Program-made: the position numbers and the translations under genes
In this document: positions 18,800 to 30,159 of the stretch, piece after piece
Numbering within the stretch: position 1 is the stretch's first letter
How the letters are laid out: every line of letters begins with the position of its first letter
The notes under the pieces: generated by a model
Told to the model about the DNA's origin: nothing
The model's database searches: none
The model's input: only the letters and a program-made list of their open reading frames with translations
IMG/VR virus record: IMGVR_UViG_3300023095_000007
Coordinates: 1-31,701 of that record
Direction: 5' to 3' (one strand)
Length of the DNA: 31,701 bases
DNA from: a virus
Lineage: Duplodnaviria; Caudoviricetes

Positions 18800-20277
18800 A
18801 TGTGGAAGTTCAACCTCTTCGGTTTATTCGGTTGGCGGTGCTTCACAACGAGTAGTGGTTTCTCTGTCTGGTAAAGTTGCCACGCTCCAGCAAGGGACAT
18901 AATATCGTCATCGTGTGCGCCTGTCTCAGCCTCAGCCCTCCACCCACTGTTCGTCTTATGTTTCACAAATGAGAACATCTGAGTAATCGTAGGTGCGTGG
19001 TAAATGACCAGTAACTGATTATTCACAAGCTCCTCTACTCCAGCGAGCATGACAGGCCGTGTTGCGCTATTAGTGTTCCATCCTAACTTATCTGTGACCT
19101 CAAGGCGTTTAGTCAGTGGGCTTAGTTGGTACTGGCGGTATACACGATACTTTTGGTTTGTGTTTAGTCTCTCAAGCCTCTCAAGCTCGTAACCTCCCCC
19201 ATTGTTTGTCTCGTAGGCTACTACTGGTTTCACGCCTGTCTGGTCATATATCATCTCAAGAACTATCTTCATCTGCGGTGTAACATCAATAACAGACCCC
19301 TCATATGATAAGTGGATCGGTTCGTCTAAGTAGTCTTTACTAATGAACGTACCTGAGTTGAGGTCTGAGCCTTCGCCAGCTGTATCGAGGAATGCAACAA
19401 TAAACTCCCCTTTACTAAGTGGTCGATACTGTGTAAACATATCTTTATTAAGATTAGATGCTATAGGCTTACGGTCACTGGCTCTTTCTTCGTACGCCAT
19501 CATCGGTTCGTGATCGAAGTACGGTAGACCAGATGTCAGGAACGCTTCCTTCGCTGTGTAAGGATACTCCTGCGCTCCCATGCGGCCAAGGTTCTTACGC
19601 TTCTCTTCCACGAAAGCTTTATCATATGTCCAGAAGGGGTCGTAAAAGAAGTTCTTATACGTTGTCCTACCTGCTTCGGTCTCATCCCAATGGGTCTTAA
19701 ACTGGTCATACCCGTTAGCAGTAGTCTCTAGAATGGTGATTGAGTCGTTCGTCACTGCCTCACCGATACCTGACTTCAAGGCTTCGAGGTCACCCGCAAA
19801 GGCGGCCTCTGTAATGTGTAGAAAAGTAATGTCATCACCACGACCAAAGGACTTGCTCTTGGCTGACCCTACACGAAGGGTGTTTGTATAAAGGACATTG
19901 CCCTGCTCATCTGTTGGGCTGTAGACCCACTCTGAACGGTTGTCGTACTTAAGTGGCATACGTATACCATTTATCTTTTGATATGACTCTAGGAAGTGTT
20001 TGGCTCGCTGGAGCTGCTGTTGAGCTGAACTATCAATAAAGGATACGGAGACACATCGTTCGTTCTTGCCCATAAGAAATTTCGTTACCGCTATACCCAG
20101 AGAGACAGAAGAGATACCTTGCTTACGGTTCTTTAGCACGTTGTTGAGTGGTCCGAGGTTGTGAAGGAAGTGTTCCTGCGCCTTATTAAGAATAAACGAA
20201 ACTTCATCACGGTTCTTGTCAATGATGGTAAACTCGTTCTCCATGAACCTCTGGAAAGTATCGGGTTTAAAGCTCAT
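18796..20277 (-). CDS. terL: terminase large subunit
   Basis: Walker A-like VLKNRKQGISS, Walker B FLHITEAAF, coupling motif ETTANG, nuclease FLDTAGEG and HDDDIMS; likely start MSFKPD at 20277. Confidence 0.93.
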   Translation of the reverse strand: MSFKPDTFQRFMENEFTIIDKNRDEVSFILNKAQEHFLHNLGPLNNVLKNRKQGISSVSLGIAVTKFLMGKNERCVSVSFIDSSAQQQLQRAKHFLESYQKINGIRMPLKYDNRSEWVYSPTDEQGNVLYTNTLRVGSAKSKSFGRGDDITFLHITEAAFAGDLEALKSGIGEAVTNDSITILETTANGYDQFKTHWDETEAGRTTYKNFFYDPFWTYDKAFVEEKRKNLGRMGAQEYPYTAKEAFLTSGLPYFDHEPMMAYEERASDRKPIASNLNKDMFTQYRPLSKGEFIVAFLDTAGEGSDLNSGTFISKDYLDEPIHLSYEGSVIDVTPQMKIVLEMIYDQTGVKPVVAYETNNGGGYELERLERLNTNQKYRVYRQYQLSPLTKRLEVTDKLGWNTNSATRPVMLAGVEELVNNQLLVIYHAPTITQMFSFVKHKTNSGWRAEAETGAHDDDIMSLAGAWQLYQTEKPLLVVKHRQPNKPKRLNFHI

Positions 20278-20719
20278 TGCGCCACCCAAGTATATCAACT
20301 ATGGTCATCATCTCTTCGTAAGTGACCACGTTGTTCTTAATAGTATTACATCGGTGACAGGCAGGAACAGTGTTCATCTTGGTGTACCCCATTGAGCTAT
20401 CCATACGGTCAACTTCTATGCGGTTAGTAGACCCACAATATACACAGGGACTTTCAATAATATACTTAATATCCTCTTGAGTTAAGTCACACACTAAATC
20501 TTTCTTTTTCGACCTTGTGACTACTCCGATCCATCTGGATACGTGAGGAGGGGTACTTTTACTATAATTATACTTCTTACGAGCAGGCTTTGCTGCTTGG
20601 ATCTCAGACTTAGCCAAACGAGCAATTTCTGCCTCAAGGCAGCCCTTTTCTCTGCATTCGATAGCCCCTACATCATACGCAACACCACACCTGTCACATA
20701 CAAGGAACTTAGAACTCAT
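20267..20719 (-). CDS. HNH endonuclease between terS and terL
   Basis: CVYCG...EVDRMDSSMGYTKMNTVPACHRCN; likely start MSSKFL at 20719. Confidence 0.8.
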   Translation of the reverse strand: MSSKFLVCDRCGVAYDVGAIECREKGCLEAEIARLAKSEIQAAKPARKKYNYSKSTPPHVSRWIGVVTRSKKKDLVCDLTQEDIKYIIESPCVYCGSTNRIEVDRMDSSMGYTKMNTVPACHRCNTIKNNVVTYEEMMTIVDILGWRNEL

Positions 20720-21137
20720 AATCAGCCTTCTTTGTCTCAATATGCTGGTGGAAGTGAACACTTGGACTAATCCCTTGCTCTTTGTCTGCACCCATAAGCT
20801 TGAGTGCCATGCCTGATGCCTTTAATCGGATAGAGTGGTCTGGTGTTACCTCTGCAAATGCTTGGTCTCCTTGACCTGATATAGATACCTTGTCAGCCTT
20901 TAATCCATCTGCTATAGGTGCTATAGCAGAATCTAGGGTAATGTTATGCTTTTTAAGAGATTGTTCAATAGCAAACTTGACGTTCGGTTTTGTCATGTTT
21001 TCGCTAGCTATTGTACGAGCCACTGCATCCGTCCTAACGTCGTAAGCTGCCTTAGCTGCCTCCTGTCCATTTCCGTCCTTAGCAACATAAGCCTTAACGA
21101 ACTTCTTTTGTTTGACTGTAAGGGGTTTATCTAACAT
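20709..21137 (-). CDS. terS: terminase small subunit
   Basis: LTVKQKKFVKAYV...NGQEAAKAAY...ARTIASENMTKPNV HTH signature. Confidence 0.88.
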   Translation of the reverse strand: MLDKPLTVKQKKFVKAYVAKDGNGQEAAKAAYDVRTDAVARTIASENMTKPNVKFAIEQSLKKHNITLDSAIAPIADGLKADKVSISGQGDQAFAEVTPDHSIRLKASGMALKLMGADKEQGISPSVHFHQHIETKKADYEF

Positions 21138-25281: not shown

Positions 25282-25354
25282 CGGTATTCTCCTCTAATAG
25301 CTCAGCTAGTTTCTCACTTAAAGGGAGGATGTTTTGGTTAAAGAAGTTAAGCAT
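25271..25354 (-). CDS. 27-aa peptide (not in ORF track)
   Basis: MLNFFNQNILPLSEKLAELLEENTDGL; TAATG coupling, AGGAG SD. Confidence 0.4.
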   Translation of the reverse strand: MLNFFNQNILPLSEKLAELLEENTDGL

Positions 25355-25836
25355 TACTTTGACGCTCCTGCCATTTTAAAGTTAAGTATGTCTTTGTTGT
25401 AATAATCGTGCACCATGAGAGAGCAAGACACTGCTTCTTCTGGTTCGAGGTATGAAGCTACATTGATGGTCTTGTTCTCGTGCCGTATAGACACTCTATA
25501 CCACTTTTTCTGTACGTAGACTCCTGGGAATATATTATTCCCCTTATAATCTGGCTTCCTGGGACGTCTGTTGTTTGCTTGCTGATCCCAGGTTGCCCAT
25601 CGTACATTTCCTGGCTCGTAGTTGCCGCTATTATCTATACGGTCAAGTGAATGTCTTGAAGTAGGTCTATCACCAACATGAAGGTAAAAAGAATTAAAAG
25701 ATTCTAACCACTCCTTGCAAACGACTATGCCACGACCACCATAGTCTCCCCACTTTCTATACTTTTGGTTATAACAGCGCTGCCTCATTGCAACCCACGC
25801 ACGATACTCTGGTGTTTTTGACATCCCATGCCTCAT
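25354..25836 (-). CDS. HNH homing endonuclease with AP2-like C-terminus
   Basis: YGGRGIVVCKEW, SLDRIDNSGNYEPGNVRWAT; FPGVY...WYRVSI...EEA AP2-like segment. Confidence 0.88.
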   Translation of the reverse strand: MRHGMSKTPEYRAWVAMRQRCYNQKYRKWGDYGGRGIVVCKEWLESFNSFYLHVGDRPTSRHSLDRIDNSGNYEPGNVRWATWDQQANNRRPRKPDYKGNNIFPGVYVQKKWYRVSIRHENKTINVASYLEPEEAVSCSLMVHDYYNKDILNFKMAGASK

Positions 25837-26029: not shown

Positions 26030-26058
26030 ATTGTAGCATTTTCGCTTACCGTTAGCAA
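26030..26058 (-). promoter_or_regulatory. sigma70 promoter with operator-like ACGGTAAGCGAAA
   Basis: TTGCTA-N17-TACAAT with TG extension; 13-mer shared with the 28.6 kb promoter. Confidence 0.7.
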
Positions 26059-26062
26059 TAGC

Positions 26063-26092
26063 AAAATAAAGAGACCGTATGTCTACGATCTC
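26063..26092 (-). terminator. intrinsic terminator
   Basis: GAGATCGTA-GACA-TACGGTCTC followed by TTTATTTT. Confidence 0.7.
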
Positions 26093-26122
26093 ATGCTCAC
26101 CCATAAACGGTATAACTCCGTT

Positions 26123-26305
26123 TTAAGCCACTGTAACAACATAAGTTTTTCCATCTTCGTTCGTTATGTAGATATCATCAATGAATACACCCGAGTTCTC
26201 AAACCTGATATCGCGATATGGTAACACCGTACCTGACTTTACCTCAGAGTAATATCTCACGCGTATCTTCTTAGAAGGTCCGTCTAAGCTACCCATTTGC
26301 AACAT
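26123..26305 (-). CDS. small hypothetical protein
   Basis: 57-60 aa; AGGAGAGG SD. Confidence 0.55.
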   Translation of the reverse strand: MLQMGSLDGPSKKIRVRYYSEVKSGTVLPYRDIRFENSGVFIDDIYITNEDGKTYVVTVA

Positions 26306-26363
26306 CCTCTCCTGTATAAGGGTCTATTACTGGAATAAAGTAATCTGGTTTTCCGCTGTCCAT
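26289..26363 (-). CDS. 24-aa peptide (not in ORF track)
   Basis: MDSGKPDYFIPVIDPYTGEDVANG; AAAGGAG SD. Confidence 0.5.
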   Translation of the reverse strand: MDSGKPDYFIPVIDPYTGEDVANG

Positions 26364-26386
26364 TGTGTTCTCCTTTGTTATGTTCA

Positions 26387-26579
26387 TGTAGATACAGCTC
26401 GCCAGAACGCAGGAACGACCCTACTATTGCGCCTCACTCACAGGTGTCACCATGCATACTTGGGCTTTCTGACGATGTGTATTCACACGAGTTGTTAAGT
26501 ATCTATCGAGTAGAAGGCGTGACACCAATCCAGCAAGTCAGTGTAACTACCCTCTGGCGGGCCGCCACCGTTCACTACA
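26387..26579 (-). ncRNA. putative ~190-nt structured RNA (element F)
   Basis: nested stems CGCCAGAG/TTCTGGCG, GACTTGCTG/TAGTAG(G)GTC, GGTGTCAC/GTGACACC, GTGTG/CACAT. Confidence 0.55.
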
Positions 26580-26583
26580 CGGC

Positions 26584-26622
26584 AGCGTCCCTGGGAGTCG
26601 AACCCATACTTGATGCCACGCT
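26584..26622 (-). ncRNA. tRNA T-arm minihelix-like element (E)
   Basis: AGCGT...TGGG-TTCGACT-CCCA...ACGCT. Confidence 0.4.
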
Positions 26623-26646
26623 TCATACTCAATGTTAATGTACCTT

Positions 26647-26768
26647 GGTTATAAACACTGGTGAGGCGGTGATAATAGTGCCGTTCCCGAAGTCATACAC
26701 TTTCGCTATCTTTTCTATCACCTACGAGGGTCGGTATATTTCCTCTACCTCAACAGCTACCTATAACC
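26647..26768 (-). ncRNA. putative ~120-nt structured RNA (element D)
   Basis: GGTTATA/TATAACC, TGAGGT/GCCTCA, GAGG/CCTC, GGTGATAG/TTATCACC. Confidence 0.55.
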
Positions 26769-26778
26769 TGTTTACTCT

Positions 26779-26854
26779 TGGAAGCTGGGGGCAAGATTCG
26801 AACTTGCTCCCATAGGCAGGTGCACCCCCTATGGTTTACTCCGACACCCCAGCT
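26779..26854 (-). tRNA. atypical tRNA-like RNA lacking a D-stem (element C)
   Basis: AGCTGGGG/CCCCAGCT acceptor + T + CCA; GCAAG-TTCGAAT-CTTGC T-arm; CCATAGG/CCTATGG stem; no D-stem. Confidence 0.6.
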
Positions 26855-26911
26855 TATACAGTTCGTTGCCAATAGCTTTCACTATTATGGATATAAAGGC
26901 AACTTTGTTTA

Positions 26912-27130
26912 TTATAACTCTTCAAACGGCTTACAAACTATCCCGAATAACAAATGACACCATACACATGCTGTATCTATTTCTAGATCGTCTTGAACCC
27001 ATTTGTAACCGACTGTAGTTTGATAATCTTCACTGTATAGGGGAAACATTAACTGGTTGCCTTGTTTGTCTGATAATCTACGCCATTTACCACATATTTC
27101 GCACTGTAGGCGTGGATTATTTTCACTCAT
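26912..27130 (-). CDS. small Zn-finger protein
   Basis: QCEICGKWRRL...CVWC; AAGGAG SD. Confidence 0.65.
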   Translation of the reverse strand: MSENNPRLQCEICGKWRRLSDKQGNQLMFPLYSEDYQTTVGYKWVQDDLEIDTACVWCHLLFGIVCKPFEEL

Positions 27131-27140
27131 TATATACTCC

Positions 27141-27341
27141 TTATAGTTCGTTAATCTTTTTCTCTAGCCGTTGCATCATGTCCCATTGCCCTTGGTGATA
27201 TGAGTGACGGACTGTCGTGCATTCTGGTTCACAGGGCTGGACTTCATCTGTTACTAACTCCAGGAAGAGAGATTTAATGTCTTCCTTACGAGGATTTTGG
27301 TAATCTACGTCTTCTAGTATTTCATCTAATTTGCTACTCAT
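27141..27341 (-). CDS. hypothetical protein (helical paralogue family)
   Basis: SKLDEILEDV...EDIKSLFLELV; GAGGGAG SD. Confidence 0.65.
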   Translation of the reverse strand: MSSKLDEILEDVDYQNPRKEDIKSLFLELVTDEVQPCEPECTTVRHSYHQGQWDMMQRLEKKINEL

Positions 27342-27369
27342 GTCTTCTGTATCTCCCTCTTAAATTCTA

Positions 27370-27545
27370 TTAAGCGTATGGTGCTAGGCACGTCTATATT
27401 TTTTACAAACGCTTTTTGCTAGCTACGAGTCTAGAATACTAGAATAATCTCATACCATCATAGCTCATCGTATTGCGCTCTCGATTTTATTCGATGCCCA
27501 GGGTAATACTCCCTGTCGAACCGTGCCCAGCACTACTACGCTTAA
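27370..27545 (-). ncRNA. putative 176-nt structured RNA (element B)
   Basis: ~23-bp imperfect terminal stem TTAAGCGTAGTAGTGCTGGGCACG/CGTGCCTAGCACCATACGCTTAA; inner CAGGG/CCCTG, AGCTATGA/TCGTAGCT, TCTAG/CTAGA. Confidence 0.6.
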
Positions 27546-27547
27546 TT

Positions 27548-27970
27548 TTAAATGTACCCTAGTCTCTTACAGGTATTATACCATCCACTTGTCTTACAGA
27601 ATGTTCCTTGTGCGGTGTACATCTGATAGGCGTATTGGACGTTGTTTGCTGCAATCTTTAACCACTCCTCTGATGGTCGAGTGTTTCGCATATTCCCTAT
27701 AAGGTTAATTTGAAAGCATCCAACCGAGTAGTCACCTGTACGTGGGTTGTCGTTAACGCTTAATGGGTTATCACGACTTTCAATCATCATAACCGCCGTA
27801 GCTTGTTCAACGTTCCAGTCATACTTGACTATCTCGCTACTACATGCCCCAGCGTCTGTGATAGCCTCGCTGACTACCTGTGACGTTATCTGAGGCTCTG
27901 TAGCGACTGTTTCAGGCGCTTGTACTGCCACTTCTTCTTTTACAACGCTAGTGGCGGGCGTTACTGGTCT
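27548..27970 (-). CDS. lysozyme-like/lytic transglycosylase domain, probably reached by -1 frameshift
   Basis: AVMMIESR catalytic Glu, SVGCFQIN, NVQYAYQMY; frame open upstream of GTG 27931 through the slippery site. Confidence 0.75.
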   Translation of the reverse strand, partial: RPVTPATSVVKEEVAVQAPETVATEPQITSQVVSEAITDAGACSSEIVKYDWNVEQATAVMMIESRDNPLSVNDNPRTGDYSVGCFQINLIGNMRNTRPSEEWLKIAANNVQYAYQMYTAQGTFCKTSGWYNTCKRLGYI

Positions 27971-27973
27971 TTT
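27927..27973 (-). promoter_or_regulatory. -1 ribosomal frameshift signal (A-AAA + H-type pseudoknot)
   Basis: CTA AAA, 5-nt spacer, S1 GTAACGC/GCGTTGT, S2 GCCACT/AGTGGC. Confidence 0.65.
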
Positions 27974-28164
27974 AGTGAAACTTGGATTGAGTTAACGACC
28001 TTGCTTTGTGTGTCTGTGAGGACGTTCACTGCTTGGAAGTATCCACCAATGAGACCGATCAATACCCCGACAGCAAACAACACGGCTGTGATAATGCGAC
28101 GGTTCTTCGCCTTCTCTTCATCGAGTAGGTCTTGGATTGTTAATTTCTCTTTAGGTGCTTTCAT
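27961..28164 (-). CDS. single-TM membrane anchor protein
   Basis: RRIITAVLFAVGVLIGLIGGYF TM after a basic N-terminus. Confidence 0.75.
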   Translation of the reverse strand: MKAPKEKLTIQDLLDEEKAKNRRIITAVLFAVGVLIGLIGGYFQAVNVLTDTQSKVVNSIQVSLKDQ

Positions 28165-28188
28165 TTTGTTTCTTCTTTCTATTTTGTA

Positions 28189-28343
28189 TTAAGCGTACGG
28201 ACTTCCCCAGCACCGTGTCCCTAACCGCCTGTCCGCAGAGCGAACCCTGTCGGATGCCTGATAGTTTGTGCCAGCGGTCTTCCTTAGCCAAGTCGCGTAC
28301 TTGGGAACGGTCAGCTGTTTGCCAGGGGAATCTGTACGCTTAA
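28189..28343 (-). ncRNA. putative 155-nt structured RNA (element A)
   Basis: TTAAGCGTAC/GTACGCTTAA, TTCCCC/GGGGAA, CTGACCGT/GCGGTTAG, CCAAGT/ACTTGG, CAGGG-TTCG-CTCTG. Confidence 0.65.
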
Positions 28344-28355
28344 TTGTTAATGTGT

Positions 28356-28494
28356 ATTCGACCGTATGAGATAGCAGTAAAGGGTAATTTCCGCAGACAG
28401 ACCTTGAGTCTCTGTTGTGGTTGCCCTGTGTTTCCAGTATCAAGTAGAAACGTACCCCTAGAGCTATCGTTACTGCTAACTACTACAGTCGAAT
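28356..28494 (-). ncRNA. putative 139-nt structured RNA (element G)
   Basis: ATTCGACTGTA/TACGGTCGAAT, TAGCAGTAA/TTACTGCTA, GGGGTA/TACCCT, TTTCTA/TGGAAA, AGAC/GTCT. Confidence 0.6.
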
Positions 28495-28607
28495 CTTGTT
28501 TGTTAAATTGTTAAACCTTGATCTGCCCTATTACGTTAGCTTATGGGCTGGTGCGTTTTTCCCGATCTTGGTTCTTCGTTGTATGGCCTTTCGTTGGTCA
28601 TGTATTA

Positions 28608-28636
28608 ATACTAGCACAACTTTCGCTTACCGTCAA
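28608..28636 (-). promoter_or_regulatory. strong sigma70 promoter with operator-like ACGGTAAGCGAAA
   Basis: TTGACG-N17-TAGTAT with TG extension. Confidence 0.75.
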
Positions 28637-28646
28637 TACATAAACG

Positions 28647-29003
28647 TTATGAAATGTCTTTTAGTGCCTGTTTCCAGATAAGAGCTTCTAACTTCCGATC
28701 CTTTTTCTTATAGGTATTTGACTGCACAACTAACTGATCCACCATGGCTTTACCTTTTCGTTCCACTTGCCATTGATAGTGTTCTGCTGGGTGGCTGGTG
28801 AAATACTGATGACAGCCATAGCAGAGTGCATCTGCGTTCATAGGTTCAAACCTAGTACCTTCTTTGCCTCTCCCCATAAAGTGAGAACAATGCAGCCCGT
28901 TAGTAGGCGGTGTGAATTGTGAGCCGCATCTCTGACACGTCCAGTTATCGCGTGTCCTCACGAATAGTGAAAATGCTTTATCAGCGGCGTCTATCTTAAC
29001 CAC
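28647..29003 (-). CDS. ninG: NinG/Rap-like recombination endonuclease
   Basis: DKAFSLFVRTRDNWTCQRCG...HCSHFMGR...TRFEPMNADALCYGCH. Confidence 0.8.
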   Translation of the reverse strand: MVKIDAADKAFSLFVRTRDNWTCQRCGSQFTPPTNGLHCSHFMGRGKEGTRFEPMNADALCYGCHQYFTSHPAEHYQWQVERKGKAMVDQLVVQSNTYKKKDRKLEALIWKQALKDIS

Positions 29004-29447: not shown

Positions 29448-29554
29448 TCTTCTAAAATTTCTGTATCTGACTTCGGAAGAGAGTCTACACCGCTGTCTAC
29501 GTTCACCGAAACGACTTGACCATCGCTAAGTGCTACGGAAATACATTTACTCAT
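29414..29554 (-). CDS. 46-aa hypothetical protein (not in ORF track)
   Basis: MSKCISVALSDGQVVSVNV...EEWMKSIKARRL; AAGGAG SD, ATGA coupling. Confidence 0.55.
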   Translation of the reverse strand: MSKCISVALSDGQVVSVNVDSGVDSLPKSDTEILEEWMKSIKARRL

Positions 29555-30159
29555 TGTTTCTCCTTATACTTGTAGTTAGACGTAATATGTTTCCACGTCT
29601 TGCCGCTTTTTATGTTGTCTATTGTTTGAGGCACTACATTGTAATCTGCGGCGATTAATCTGTGTACCCTCTTATCTTCCATTATGAGTAGAACCTGTGA
29701 CTCTCTTAATTTTGCCATAGAGCCTTTTTCTCCAATAGGACCAGTCCCGTCTAATACAATATCTTTGCTGTTATCCATAGCGCTTCCCCAATACAGATGT
29801 CTGTAATTAAAGCACGAAGGATTGTGACAAATGATAGGCTTGTGTAAAGCAAACGTCTTATCCTTTGGTGGTGGCCCCACTCTCACGCGCAAAGCCATGT
29901 TATGGACTCTCACCTTCCTATTATTTATGCTAAGCATTCCATATCCGAGGCTATTTTTGTTGTACTTCCAGATAACACATTTGTCCGTTTCTACTCTGAT
30001 AGAATCCTCAAAGAACTTCTTCGGTTCTCCCACAGGCTGTCTGTACGGCTGATAGTTTACATCTCCGTGTCTGCTTAGCCTAGATAAGTGCTTAGAGCAC
30101 AGCTTAAGACGAGACGGTTTAACTCTGCCGAAACAGCCGTCTATAGAGCACGTTAGCAT
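29551..30159 (-). CDS. HNH (HNH_3-type) homing endonuclease with C-terminal HTH
   Basis: CVIW...GYG...ALH...CHNPSCFNYRHLYWGSAMDN; AKLRESQV...IAADYNV...GKTWKH. Confidence 0.85.
   Translation of the reverse strand: MLTCSIDGCFGRVKPSRLKLCSKHLSRLSRHGDVNYQPYRQPVGEPKKFFEDSIRVETDKCVIWKYNKNSLGYGMLSINNRKVRVHNMALRVRVGPPPKDKTFALHKPIICHNPSCFNYRHLYWGSAMDNSKDIVLDGTGPIGEKGSMAKLRESQVLLIMEDKRVHRLIAADYNVVPQTIDNIKSGKTWKHITSNYKYKEKQ

Follow-up and report, generated by a model that had tools for sequence, protein, structure and literature searches.

Phage T7 carries RNase III sites in the form of simple hairpins of approximately 60 nt between the genes of its polycistronic messenger RNAs (mRNAs). The lambda nut site (boxA and boxB) and the put sites of HK022 are cis-acting RNAs located just downstream of a phage promoter. 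Here, these and related systems are compared with an RNA operon in the IMG/VR virus contig IMGVR_UViG_3300023095_000007, which was analysed over its whole length of 31.7 kb (the window; estimated completeness 86%). The operon is located between a NinG-like gene and a second promoter (26058-26030). In transcription of ribosomal RNA (rRNA), NusB/S10 is bound by boxA, which suffices for assembly of the rrn antitermination complex; 30S biogenesis requires the leader-trailer helix, and a model was put forward in which boxA keeps the 5' strand close to the RNA exit for as long as the trailer has not emerged (PMC10250234, accessible text, where the lambda N-TAC is also mentioned). The boxA consensus GYTCTTTAANA is gamma-proteobacterial (PMC5725501, accessible text). 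YrlA RNAs have a GNCGAAN0-1G motif near the 5' end and a T arm which precedes the D arm (PMC4201824, accessible text), and about 10,000 viral RNA candidates are catalogued in PMC10690425, according to its accessible part.

We found that the closing helices of the operon are real, that they are conserved and covary as RNA on the gene strand, and that close relatives keep these clamps and their junctions and exchange the cores between them. With moderate confidence, we read the non-coding half of the operon as eight cassettes with variable cores, which are laid out like the pre-16S rRNA of the host and are likely boxA/Nus-transcribed and excised by RNase III.

Closing helices and their exchanged cores

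The elements B and G (Table 1) belong to one family, in which a near-invariant clamp, GUAGUAGUGCUGGUAG...CUAGCACCAUAC, surrounds a free core of 28 to about 290 nt. The clamp consists of an outer stem of seven variable pairs, GUA/UAC, a 3x2 internal loop (GUA opposite CA) and a 13-bp inner helix (GUGCUGGUAGUAA/UUGCUACUAGCAC), with a helix of approximately 23 bp in all. The clamp 16-mer was found in about 130 viral stretches, and among the 120 loci listed at least 30 also have the 3' arm. At least 36 distinct canonical elements were collected from uncultured phages and Saccharimonadales contigs, and most of the carriers have no detectable homologue of the proteins encoded next to the operon in the window. 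The 14-mer AACAATTAAGCGTA was rejected as a search probe; its matches were mostly due to chance, and the 3' arm was present in only eight of those listed.

The outer seven positions of the clamp are paired in 97.1% of the cells of the family alignment, compared with 72.3% (standard deviation 2.3, maximum 79.6) in 1000 partner shuffles, and the outer arms occur as 17 distinct sequences among 35 elements. Covariation, which the preliminary description of this DNA had named as a check, is thus present in the outer stem. In the inner helix, position 11 occurs as U.G, U-A and C-G. The same description had argued from G-U pairs for RNA structure on the transcribed strand, and this was borne out: the alignment contains 70 G.U pairs and two A.C mismatches, which argues that the clamp is formed as RNA on the gene strand. 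Ten short clamp members were used to build a covariance model (R1), which matches B with 48.1 bits (E 9e-11) and G with 42.4 bits (E 4e-9), and A shares its outer stem with B and has an inner helix of its own. Therefore, the elements cannot all be called unrelated, as had been proposed. R1 also finds second or third copies of the clamp in six relatives (L003, L060, L156, L174, L177 and L198).

In Rfam 15, there were no matches at the gathering cut-off in the window and nothing relevant in the relatives, in agreement with the earlier statement that no element was recognised as a named family. No DNA match was found among the cultured phages of INPHARED, neither for the 2.7-kb unit nor for a 54-nt query comprising boxA and clamp. 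Among public sequencing runs, four DNA runs with small shares (0.05-0.15) were listed and no RNA run. In the accessible parts of the literature on Saccharibacteria phage tRNA-like RNAs (tRNA, transfer RNA) and on phage boxA, leader-trailer helices and RNase III, we found no description of such elements; they may be among the unnamed candidates of PMC10690425.

To compare folding with chance, RNA of the minus strand was folded together with 200 dinucleotide shuffles. The z-scores (with the number of shuffles out of 200) were -4.2 for G (0/200), -2.9 for A (0/200), -6.4 for B (0/200), -2.1 for C (6/200), -2.4 for D (5/200) and -2.8 for the GAAA hairpin (2/200). For these six, the preliminary description of elements with pairing ends holds against shuffled controls. 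Its elements E and F, as first drawn, folded no better than their shuffles (z = +0.5, 136/200, and z = +0.15, 103/200) and were mis-segmented; comparison with the relative L060 revealed the true boundaries of the two units which replace them, EF1 (26633-26505; z = -5.2, 0/200) and F2. Six other gaps of the window folded no better than chance (z from -0.74 to +1.41), and thus structured RNA is special to this operon. The minimum free energies (MFE) of the two strands were compared over identical coordinates for G, B, C, D and EF1; the two strands of A were folded at different lengths and are not comparable. In all five the MFE is lower on the minus strand, for example -65.9 versus -54.4 kcal/mol in B and -62.8 versus -42.8 kcal/mol in EF1. 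The plus strand folds too, as inverted repeats must, but less stably.

How freely the cores change became visible in the relatives. The loci L002-L005, found through the lysin gene of the operon, have the same layout as the window (NinG-like gene, promoter, long hairpins, 67-aa protein, lysin), and the arms of B recur in them around different interiors. Over the stretch from the promoter to A, L060 and the window are 83% identical. L060 has kept all closing stems and junctions, but G, the hairpin, C, D and EF1 have other cores there, and F2 is absent. The stem of G, kept in L060, shows in L004 a compensatory change from A-U to U-A. In A, only two of the 155 bases differ in L060, both in the hairpin capped by UUCG and both pair-preserving (A-U to G.U and G.U to A-U). 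The closing stem of the GAAA hairpin is kept in L060 and L306, and long inserts replace its loop; in the same two relatives the core of C is replaced between conserved flanks, and the stem of D is kept with G.U-mediated changes. EF1 has the same closing stem in L060 around a different core. F2 is absent from both L060 and L306, and we therefore regard it as a whole-element indel. In L306, a single canonical clamp, with a core of 28 nt, precedes the membrane-protein gene; D has another core, and EF1 is lacking as well as F2. A further contig, L305, was rejected as a relative, since its match to the 18-mer of the D junction is inside a coding region and due to chance.

boxA-like motifs and the 16S leaders of the putative host

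The motif (A)CAUUAACAAUU is located just 5' of many clamps. With at most one mismatch to TTAA[AC]AATT, it was found at a fixed distance of 4-5 nt before the clamp in 15 of the 36 canonical elements and in 0.86% of random 24-mers. Five window elements are accompanied by boxA-like UUAACA(A), which stands before G (twice), A, B (as UUUAAAAUU) and EF1, and also inside F2. Of the nine TTAACAA matches in the window, five are on the minus strand of the 2.6-kb unit, and four of these are just before or inside closing stems.

Sequence evidence suggests that the phage probably has a host among the Saccharibacteria. Full clamps were found in six of 24 genome-contig matches, four of them in metagenome-assembled genomes (MAGs) of Saccharibacteria, and R1 matches two of 121 Saccharimonadales genomes. 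One of the host clamps is chromosomal, since its contig (G002 contig 16) holds nusB, rnc, rpsP and a KH-domain gene, along with a NUDIX gene. Each of the two host clamps comes directly after a gene homologous to that for the L060-type lysin (E 5e-18 and 1e-11). The host clamp on G002 contig 16 (L252, 700-1390, minus strand) is followed by approximately 450 nt without an open reading frame (ORF) of at least 50 aa before the next gene, and this stretch is possibly a further structured RNA. NusB and RNase III were detected in all five Saccharimonadales genomes searched for them (G002 contig 16, G010, G026, G007 and G050). In each of the five, nusB and rnc are approximately 1 kb apart on the same strand.

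The 16S leaders were then collected from Saccharimonadales: 61 genomes were searched, of which 25 had a 16S match, and one unpublished genome was excluded. In G002, CUUUAACAAUUUAGUUGUGCAA is located 77 nt before the 16S start. The leaders read GAAC[G/U]UUAA[A/C]AAUU-NNN-(G)UAGUGCAAAUCAACGUCAG, with a boxA-like part that is mostly UUAAAAAUU, and in 14 of 27 leaders boxA is followed within 12 nt by U[AG]GUG[CU]. The reverse complement of the leader motif follows the 16S gene; therefore the two form a leader-trailer helix with boxA inside. Since host leaders and phage arms (boxA, few bases, GUAGUAGUGC) have boxA and UAGUGC in common, the phage arm copies the start of the host pre-16S stalk, and the phage variants UUAACAGUU and UUGAAAAU parallel variants of the host. 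Counting a 10-mer boxA in the host genomes was uninformative, because the counts resemble the control, and for 23S leaders there was no match to the large subunit rRNA in four MAGs. In three Saccharimonadales loci (L278, L284 and L288) the motif of the 16S 5' end occurs twice, approximately 130 nt apart, which suggests an insertion or duplication near the 16S start.

The layout of the cassettes, which resembles that of the host pre-16S rRNA, makes boxA/Nus transcription and excision by RNase III likely. One transcript would run from the operon promoter, and its boxA copies would load the host Nus factors. NusB/S10, bound to boxA on the nascent RNA, would keep the 5' arm close to the polymerase for as long as the 3' arm has not emerged, as in the pre-rRNA model (PMC10250234, accessible text). 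Each clamp would close co-transcriptionally, and its helix of approximately 23 bp would be cut by RNase III. The cuts would separate the mRNAs (for the membrane protein with the lysin, and for the small ORFs) and would release the cores as stable small RNAs with paired ends. Cutting of a precursor at the closing stems was already part of the preliminary description, and it fits the anatomy of boxA combined with a leader-trailer layout. If this holds, the use of boxA/Nus antitermination and of the RNase III leader-trailer helix extends beyond rRNA, and phages of a major uncultured bacterial lineage would reuse the rRNA frame for small RNAs and for mRNA punctuation.

Several observations weigh against this proposal. 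boxA is absent before 21 of the 36 canonical elements, before both host chromosomal clamps, and before C, D and the hairpin in the window. The count of TTAACAA in the whole window is not unusual (nine versus 5.8 expected; at least nine in 13 of 100 shuffles). The identity with the host leader is short, comprising boxA and GUAGUGC, and approximate matching of the remainder of the clamp to host rRNA loci gave nothing closer than 4-5 mismatches. Rho was not found above the cut-off in any of the five host genomes searched, and thus the classic anti-Rho role of boxA may not apply. F2 (26504-26390) folds weakly (z = -0.6, 46/200). The core of the L306 clamp has only 28 nt, and so the helix itself, and not a released RNA, may be the functional part. 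Finally, the host assignment rests on MAGs.

As a more tentative extension, the clamp may be a portable device shared by Saccharibacteria and their phages, which hands any cargo to the machinery for transcription, folding and trimming of rRNA, and which moves by recombination at the clamp. The cargo could then be a tRNA mimic, an ornate small RNA or a mini-mRNA, and the clamp would be a natural modular cassette for RNA expression and maturation as well as an undescribed RNA family without an Rfam entry. The clamp is a defined, highly conserved motif, amenable to in vitro work with RNase III, RNase P and NusB-S10. It is also a sequence marker which links uncultured phages to Saccharibacteria hosts. 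The fast-changing cargo RNAs, some of them tRNA-shaped, are candidates for a role in phage-host conflict.

Table 1. Features of the RNA operon, in the order of transcription (all on the minus strand; positions refer to the window).
Feature	Position	Strand	Description	Basis
Operon promoter (predicted)	28608..28636	-	sigma-70-like; TTGACG, 17 nt, TAGTAT; TG-extended	consensus scan
Two overlapping boxA-like copies	28498..28515	-	UUUAACAAUUUAACAAAC; directly 5' of G	match to Saccharimonadales 16S-leader boxA
Cassette G	28356..28494	-	outer stem AUUCGACUGUA/UACGGUCGAAU, internal loop, inner stem, 90-nt core	
boxA-like motif	28342..28350	-	UUAACAAUU; overlaps first bases of the outer stem of A	
Cassette A	28189..28343	-	outer stem UUAAGCGUAC/GUACGCUUAA (as in B), own inner stem, core with UUCG-capped hairpin	
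67-aa ORF, first gene of the operon	27961..28164	-		homologues in L002-L005; no Pfam family
Lysozyme-like frame (lysin)	27548..27990	-	SLT_3	Pfam SLT_3, E 1.1e-6
boxA-like variant	27544..27555	-	ACAUUUAAAAUU; overlaps lysin stop codon, directly 5' of B	
Cassette B	27370..27546	-	canonical clamp GUA-GUA-GUGCUGG...CUAGCAC-CA-UAC, outer stem UUAAGC/GCUUAA	
Two small ORFs	26912..27341	-	66 aa and 72 aa (CxxC...CxxC)	ORF map; weak zf-CW match below Pfam cut-off
GAAA-loop hairpin	26865..26903	-	closing stem GUUGCC.../...GGCAAC	
Cassette C	26779..26854	-	tRNA-shaped RNA	
Cassette D	26647..26768	-	closing stem GGUUAUAGG.../...UUAUAACC	
UUAACAUU, then cassette EF1	26505..26638	-	17-position closing stem AUUGAGUAUGAAGCGUG/CACGCCUUCUACUCGAU, three inner hairpins; replaces E and part of F	
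Cassette F2	26390..26504	-	AGAUAC, UUAACAA, ..., GUAUCU	
Two small overlapping ORFs	26123..26363	-	24 aa (ATG at 26363 preceded by a ribosome-binding site) and 60 aa	
Intrinsic-terminator-like hairpin and T-run	26071..26092	-		sequence scan

tRNA-like cores and alternative explanations

Cassette C is a tRNA-shaped RNA that would be unable to decode. Its acceptor-like stem has 8 bp, a D arm is lacking, a stem of 7 bp carries an 11-nt loop, and the T arm (GCAAG-UUCGAAU-CUUGC) is perfect and is followed by CCCCAGC. Its match to the tRNA-Sec model (18.4 bits, E 3.1, cut-off 47) is the best sub-cut-off match to Rfam. The 18-mer of its T arm was found inside called phage tRNA genes in 24 of the 30 loci checked. 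The 11-nt loop (26800-26830, minus strand) includes the palindrome GGUGCACC, through which two molecules could pair with each other. tRNA-like cores with both D and T arms are present in L099, in the core of L060 that corresponds to D (D') and in an element of L004; L179 reaches 23.8 bits on a tRNA model, and the first inner hairpin of EF1 has a T-loop-like UUCGACU. ARAGORN called no tRNA in the window or in L002-L005.

Such cores invite the view of the preliminary description, according to which they are the point: the operon would be a factory of trans-acting small RNAs (sRNAs), tRNA mimics or decoys directed against host defence or RNA enzymes, and the clamp would only deliver them. This view is compatible with the processing model. 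The perfect T arms of C, L060 D', the L004 element and L099, the identity of the T arm of C with that of real phage tRNAs, and the conservation of core A with pair-preserving changes speak for it, and the differences of the cores between close relatives are what an arms race would predict. Nevertheless, we consider it unlikely. No core matches any Rfam family, and T-arm-like hairpins are not significantly enriched in the canonical cores (two of 36 versus 0.7 expected). Since the clamps of L224, L233 and L257 enclose a small ORF preceded by a ribosome-binding site, the clamp is not a dedicated sRNA device, and in L306 it encloses a mere 28-nt stub. Furthermore, no target was identified, and none of the results speaks for mimicry of retron, crRNA or antitoxin RNA, or for RNA polymerase as a target. 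The Pfam scan of the 48 proteins of the window, which is 86% complete, gave no match to TROVE (Ro60), and neither RtcB nor a reverse transcriptase was found by Pfam in the window. An identity with YrlA or Y RNA was rejected as well: there is no match to RF02553 at E<=10 in the window, GNCGAAN0-1G is absent from the 5' arms inspected, and in L099 and L060 D' the D arm precedes the T arm.

Alternatively, the clamp could be the end of a pre-tRNA-like molecule, with the inner helix as acceptor stem, a cut by RNase P and trimming to CCA, in the manner of tRNA punctuation. The invariant GU/GCUGGUA...UACUAGC/ACCA can be read as G1-C72 with U at -1, A73, and C74 C75 A76 encoded; the 13 bp of the inner helix correspond to the length of the stack of acceptor and T stem, and on L179 a tRNA model takes the inner helix as acceptor stem. 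However, in the conserved structure the leader pairs with A73 and C74, and CCA is missing in G and A of the window, in L099, in L004 and in the host variant of G122 (ACUCA). No host tRNA with a clamp stem was found in five genomes, where the two pattern matches are not tRNAs, and ARAGORN calls none of the elements. All this makes the pre-tRNA explanation very unlikely.

It could further be argued that the inverted repeats act at the level of DNA, as ends of mobile elements or as recombination modules that shuffle phage cargo, and have no role as RNA. Indeed, close relatives differ in the presence of whole elements, for example F2, which begins with TTAACAA and is lacking in L060 and L306, and the clamp is common to host and phage and identical in phages which share no detectable neighbour proteins with the window. 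A DNA-level role cannot explain the ratio of G.U to A.C, and the strand-specific MFE also speaks against it; moreover, the outer stem covaries as an inverted pair and not as a direct target duplication, the elements are always in gene orientation, and no transposase or integrase lies beside them in the window. Recombination at conserved clamps can explain the exchange of cores and leave an RNA role intact, and we regard a purely DNA-level function as highly improbable.

Least probable of all is a nut-like site, in which boxA and the hairpin would be bound by a phage N-like protein for processive antitermination of a late/lysis operon, with the cores as tolerated loop insertions: the first element is always located between the promoter and the genes for membrane protein and lysin (window, L002, L003, L004, L060 and L306), the core of L306 is as short as described and the invariant internal loop resembles a protein-recognition site, but elements also follow genes at their 3' ends, are present in the host chromosome and occur as multiple copies, the scan of the operon revealed a single terminator-like site, and the PHROGs and Pfam scans of the window revealed no N-like protein, although such proteins are small and easily missed.

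Genes of the operon and comparison with known systems

All genes of the window are on the minus strand. Products recognised with PHROGs and Pfam are the major head protein, terminase subunits, an internal virion protein, Erf, a NinG-like protein and several HNH endonucleases. Four genes for endonucleases of the HNH/NinG type lie within approximately 10 kb (20267-20791, 25354-25836, 28647-29003 and 29551-30159, all on the minus strand), and two of them flank the RNA operon.

The limits of the operon are essentially those of the preliminary description. The scan found a promoter at 28636-28608, which is identical in L060 and similar in L306 at the same place, and a hairpin with T-run at 26092-26071, a position that also holds hairpins, of different sequence, in these two relatives. 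Both this promoter and the downstream one (26030-26058, minus strand) contain ACGGTAAGCGAAA in the spacer, while the downstream promoter of L060 and L306 has the reverse complement instead (TTCGCTTACCGT or TTCGCTTACTGT). The shared spacer motif is possibly the operator for a common regulator. According to the ORF map, about 1.2 kb of the operon is non-coding, and not approximately 900 nt as first estimated. ORFs of 84, 46, 45, 40 and 34 aa overlap the non-coding elements and were rejected as genes, because all have TTG starts and no counterpart of at least 30 aa was found over the cassette regions of L060; conserved ORFs across these segments, which would have spoken against structured RNA, are not seen in this comparison.

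The product of the 67-aa ORF, read by eye, appears to be a single-span membrane protein. The lysin frame lacks a nearby start codon and, in the -1 frame, runs without interruption through the stop of this ORF. We analysed the arrangement in seven genomes, the window (27548-28164), L002, L003, L004, L005, L060 and L306. In all seven, the -1 frame of the lysin is open from 25-55 nt before the stop of the upstream ORF (65-71 aa), a run of AAAA is located 4-13 nt before that stop, and the first ATG, GTG or TTG follows 32-278 nt beyond it. This looks like a programmed -1 frameshift, which would yield a small membrane protein and a membrane-anchored lysin. Two different catalytic domains occur in this arrangement of membrane ORF and lysin: the window has SLT_3, and both L060 and L306 have a domain of another type. 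Further downstream, the 72-aa protein was used as a probe for related loci and found none, and the context of the ATG at 26363 is kept in L060 and L306.

Compared with phage tRNA clusters, the likeness lies in the T arm of C, which is identical to that of real phage tRNA genes, and in the acceptor, D and T arms of several cores of relatives. In contrast to tRNA genes, no element is called by ARAGORN, and the anticodon arms are aberrant, with, for example, an 11-nt loop or an insert of 37-42 nt. YrlA RNAs also combine an end-paired closing stem with a tRNA-like module, arise as several from one precursor and are known from phages (PMC4201824, accessible text; Rfam RF02553). However, their stem leaves from the anticodon side, whereas the stem described here continues the acceptor.

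The RNase III sites of T7 likewise form a family of intergenic hairpins which resemble one another, have an internal loop and are presumed to separate and stabilise mRNAs, but here the arms are up to 300 nt apart, with a variable cargo between them and boxA in front. With lambda nut and HK022 put, the operon shares a cis RNA near a phage promoter with a boxA-like motif and a hairpin. It differs from nut in lacking a 15-nt boxB with a GNRA-like loop and in having a long-range helix that is repeated along the operon.

The differences from the rrn leader are that the phage helix surrounds no rRNA but an unrelated RNA of 28-290 nt, or a small ORF (no rRNA family of Rfam matches in the window, and the cores are unrelated to each other), that up to eight such helices are present per protein-coding operon of a phage, and that many copies lack boxA. 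What the two have in common is a long-range helix which encloses a structured RNA and whose 5' arm is directly preceded or overlapped by a boxA-like motif; in the phage this helix has approximately 23 bp, and its motif together with UAGUGC matches the 16S leader of the putative host.

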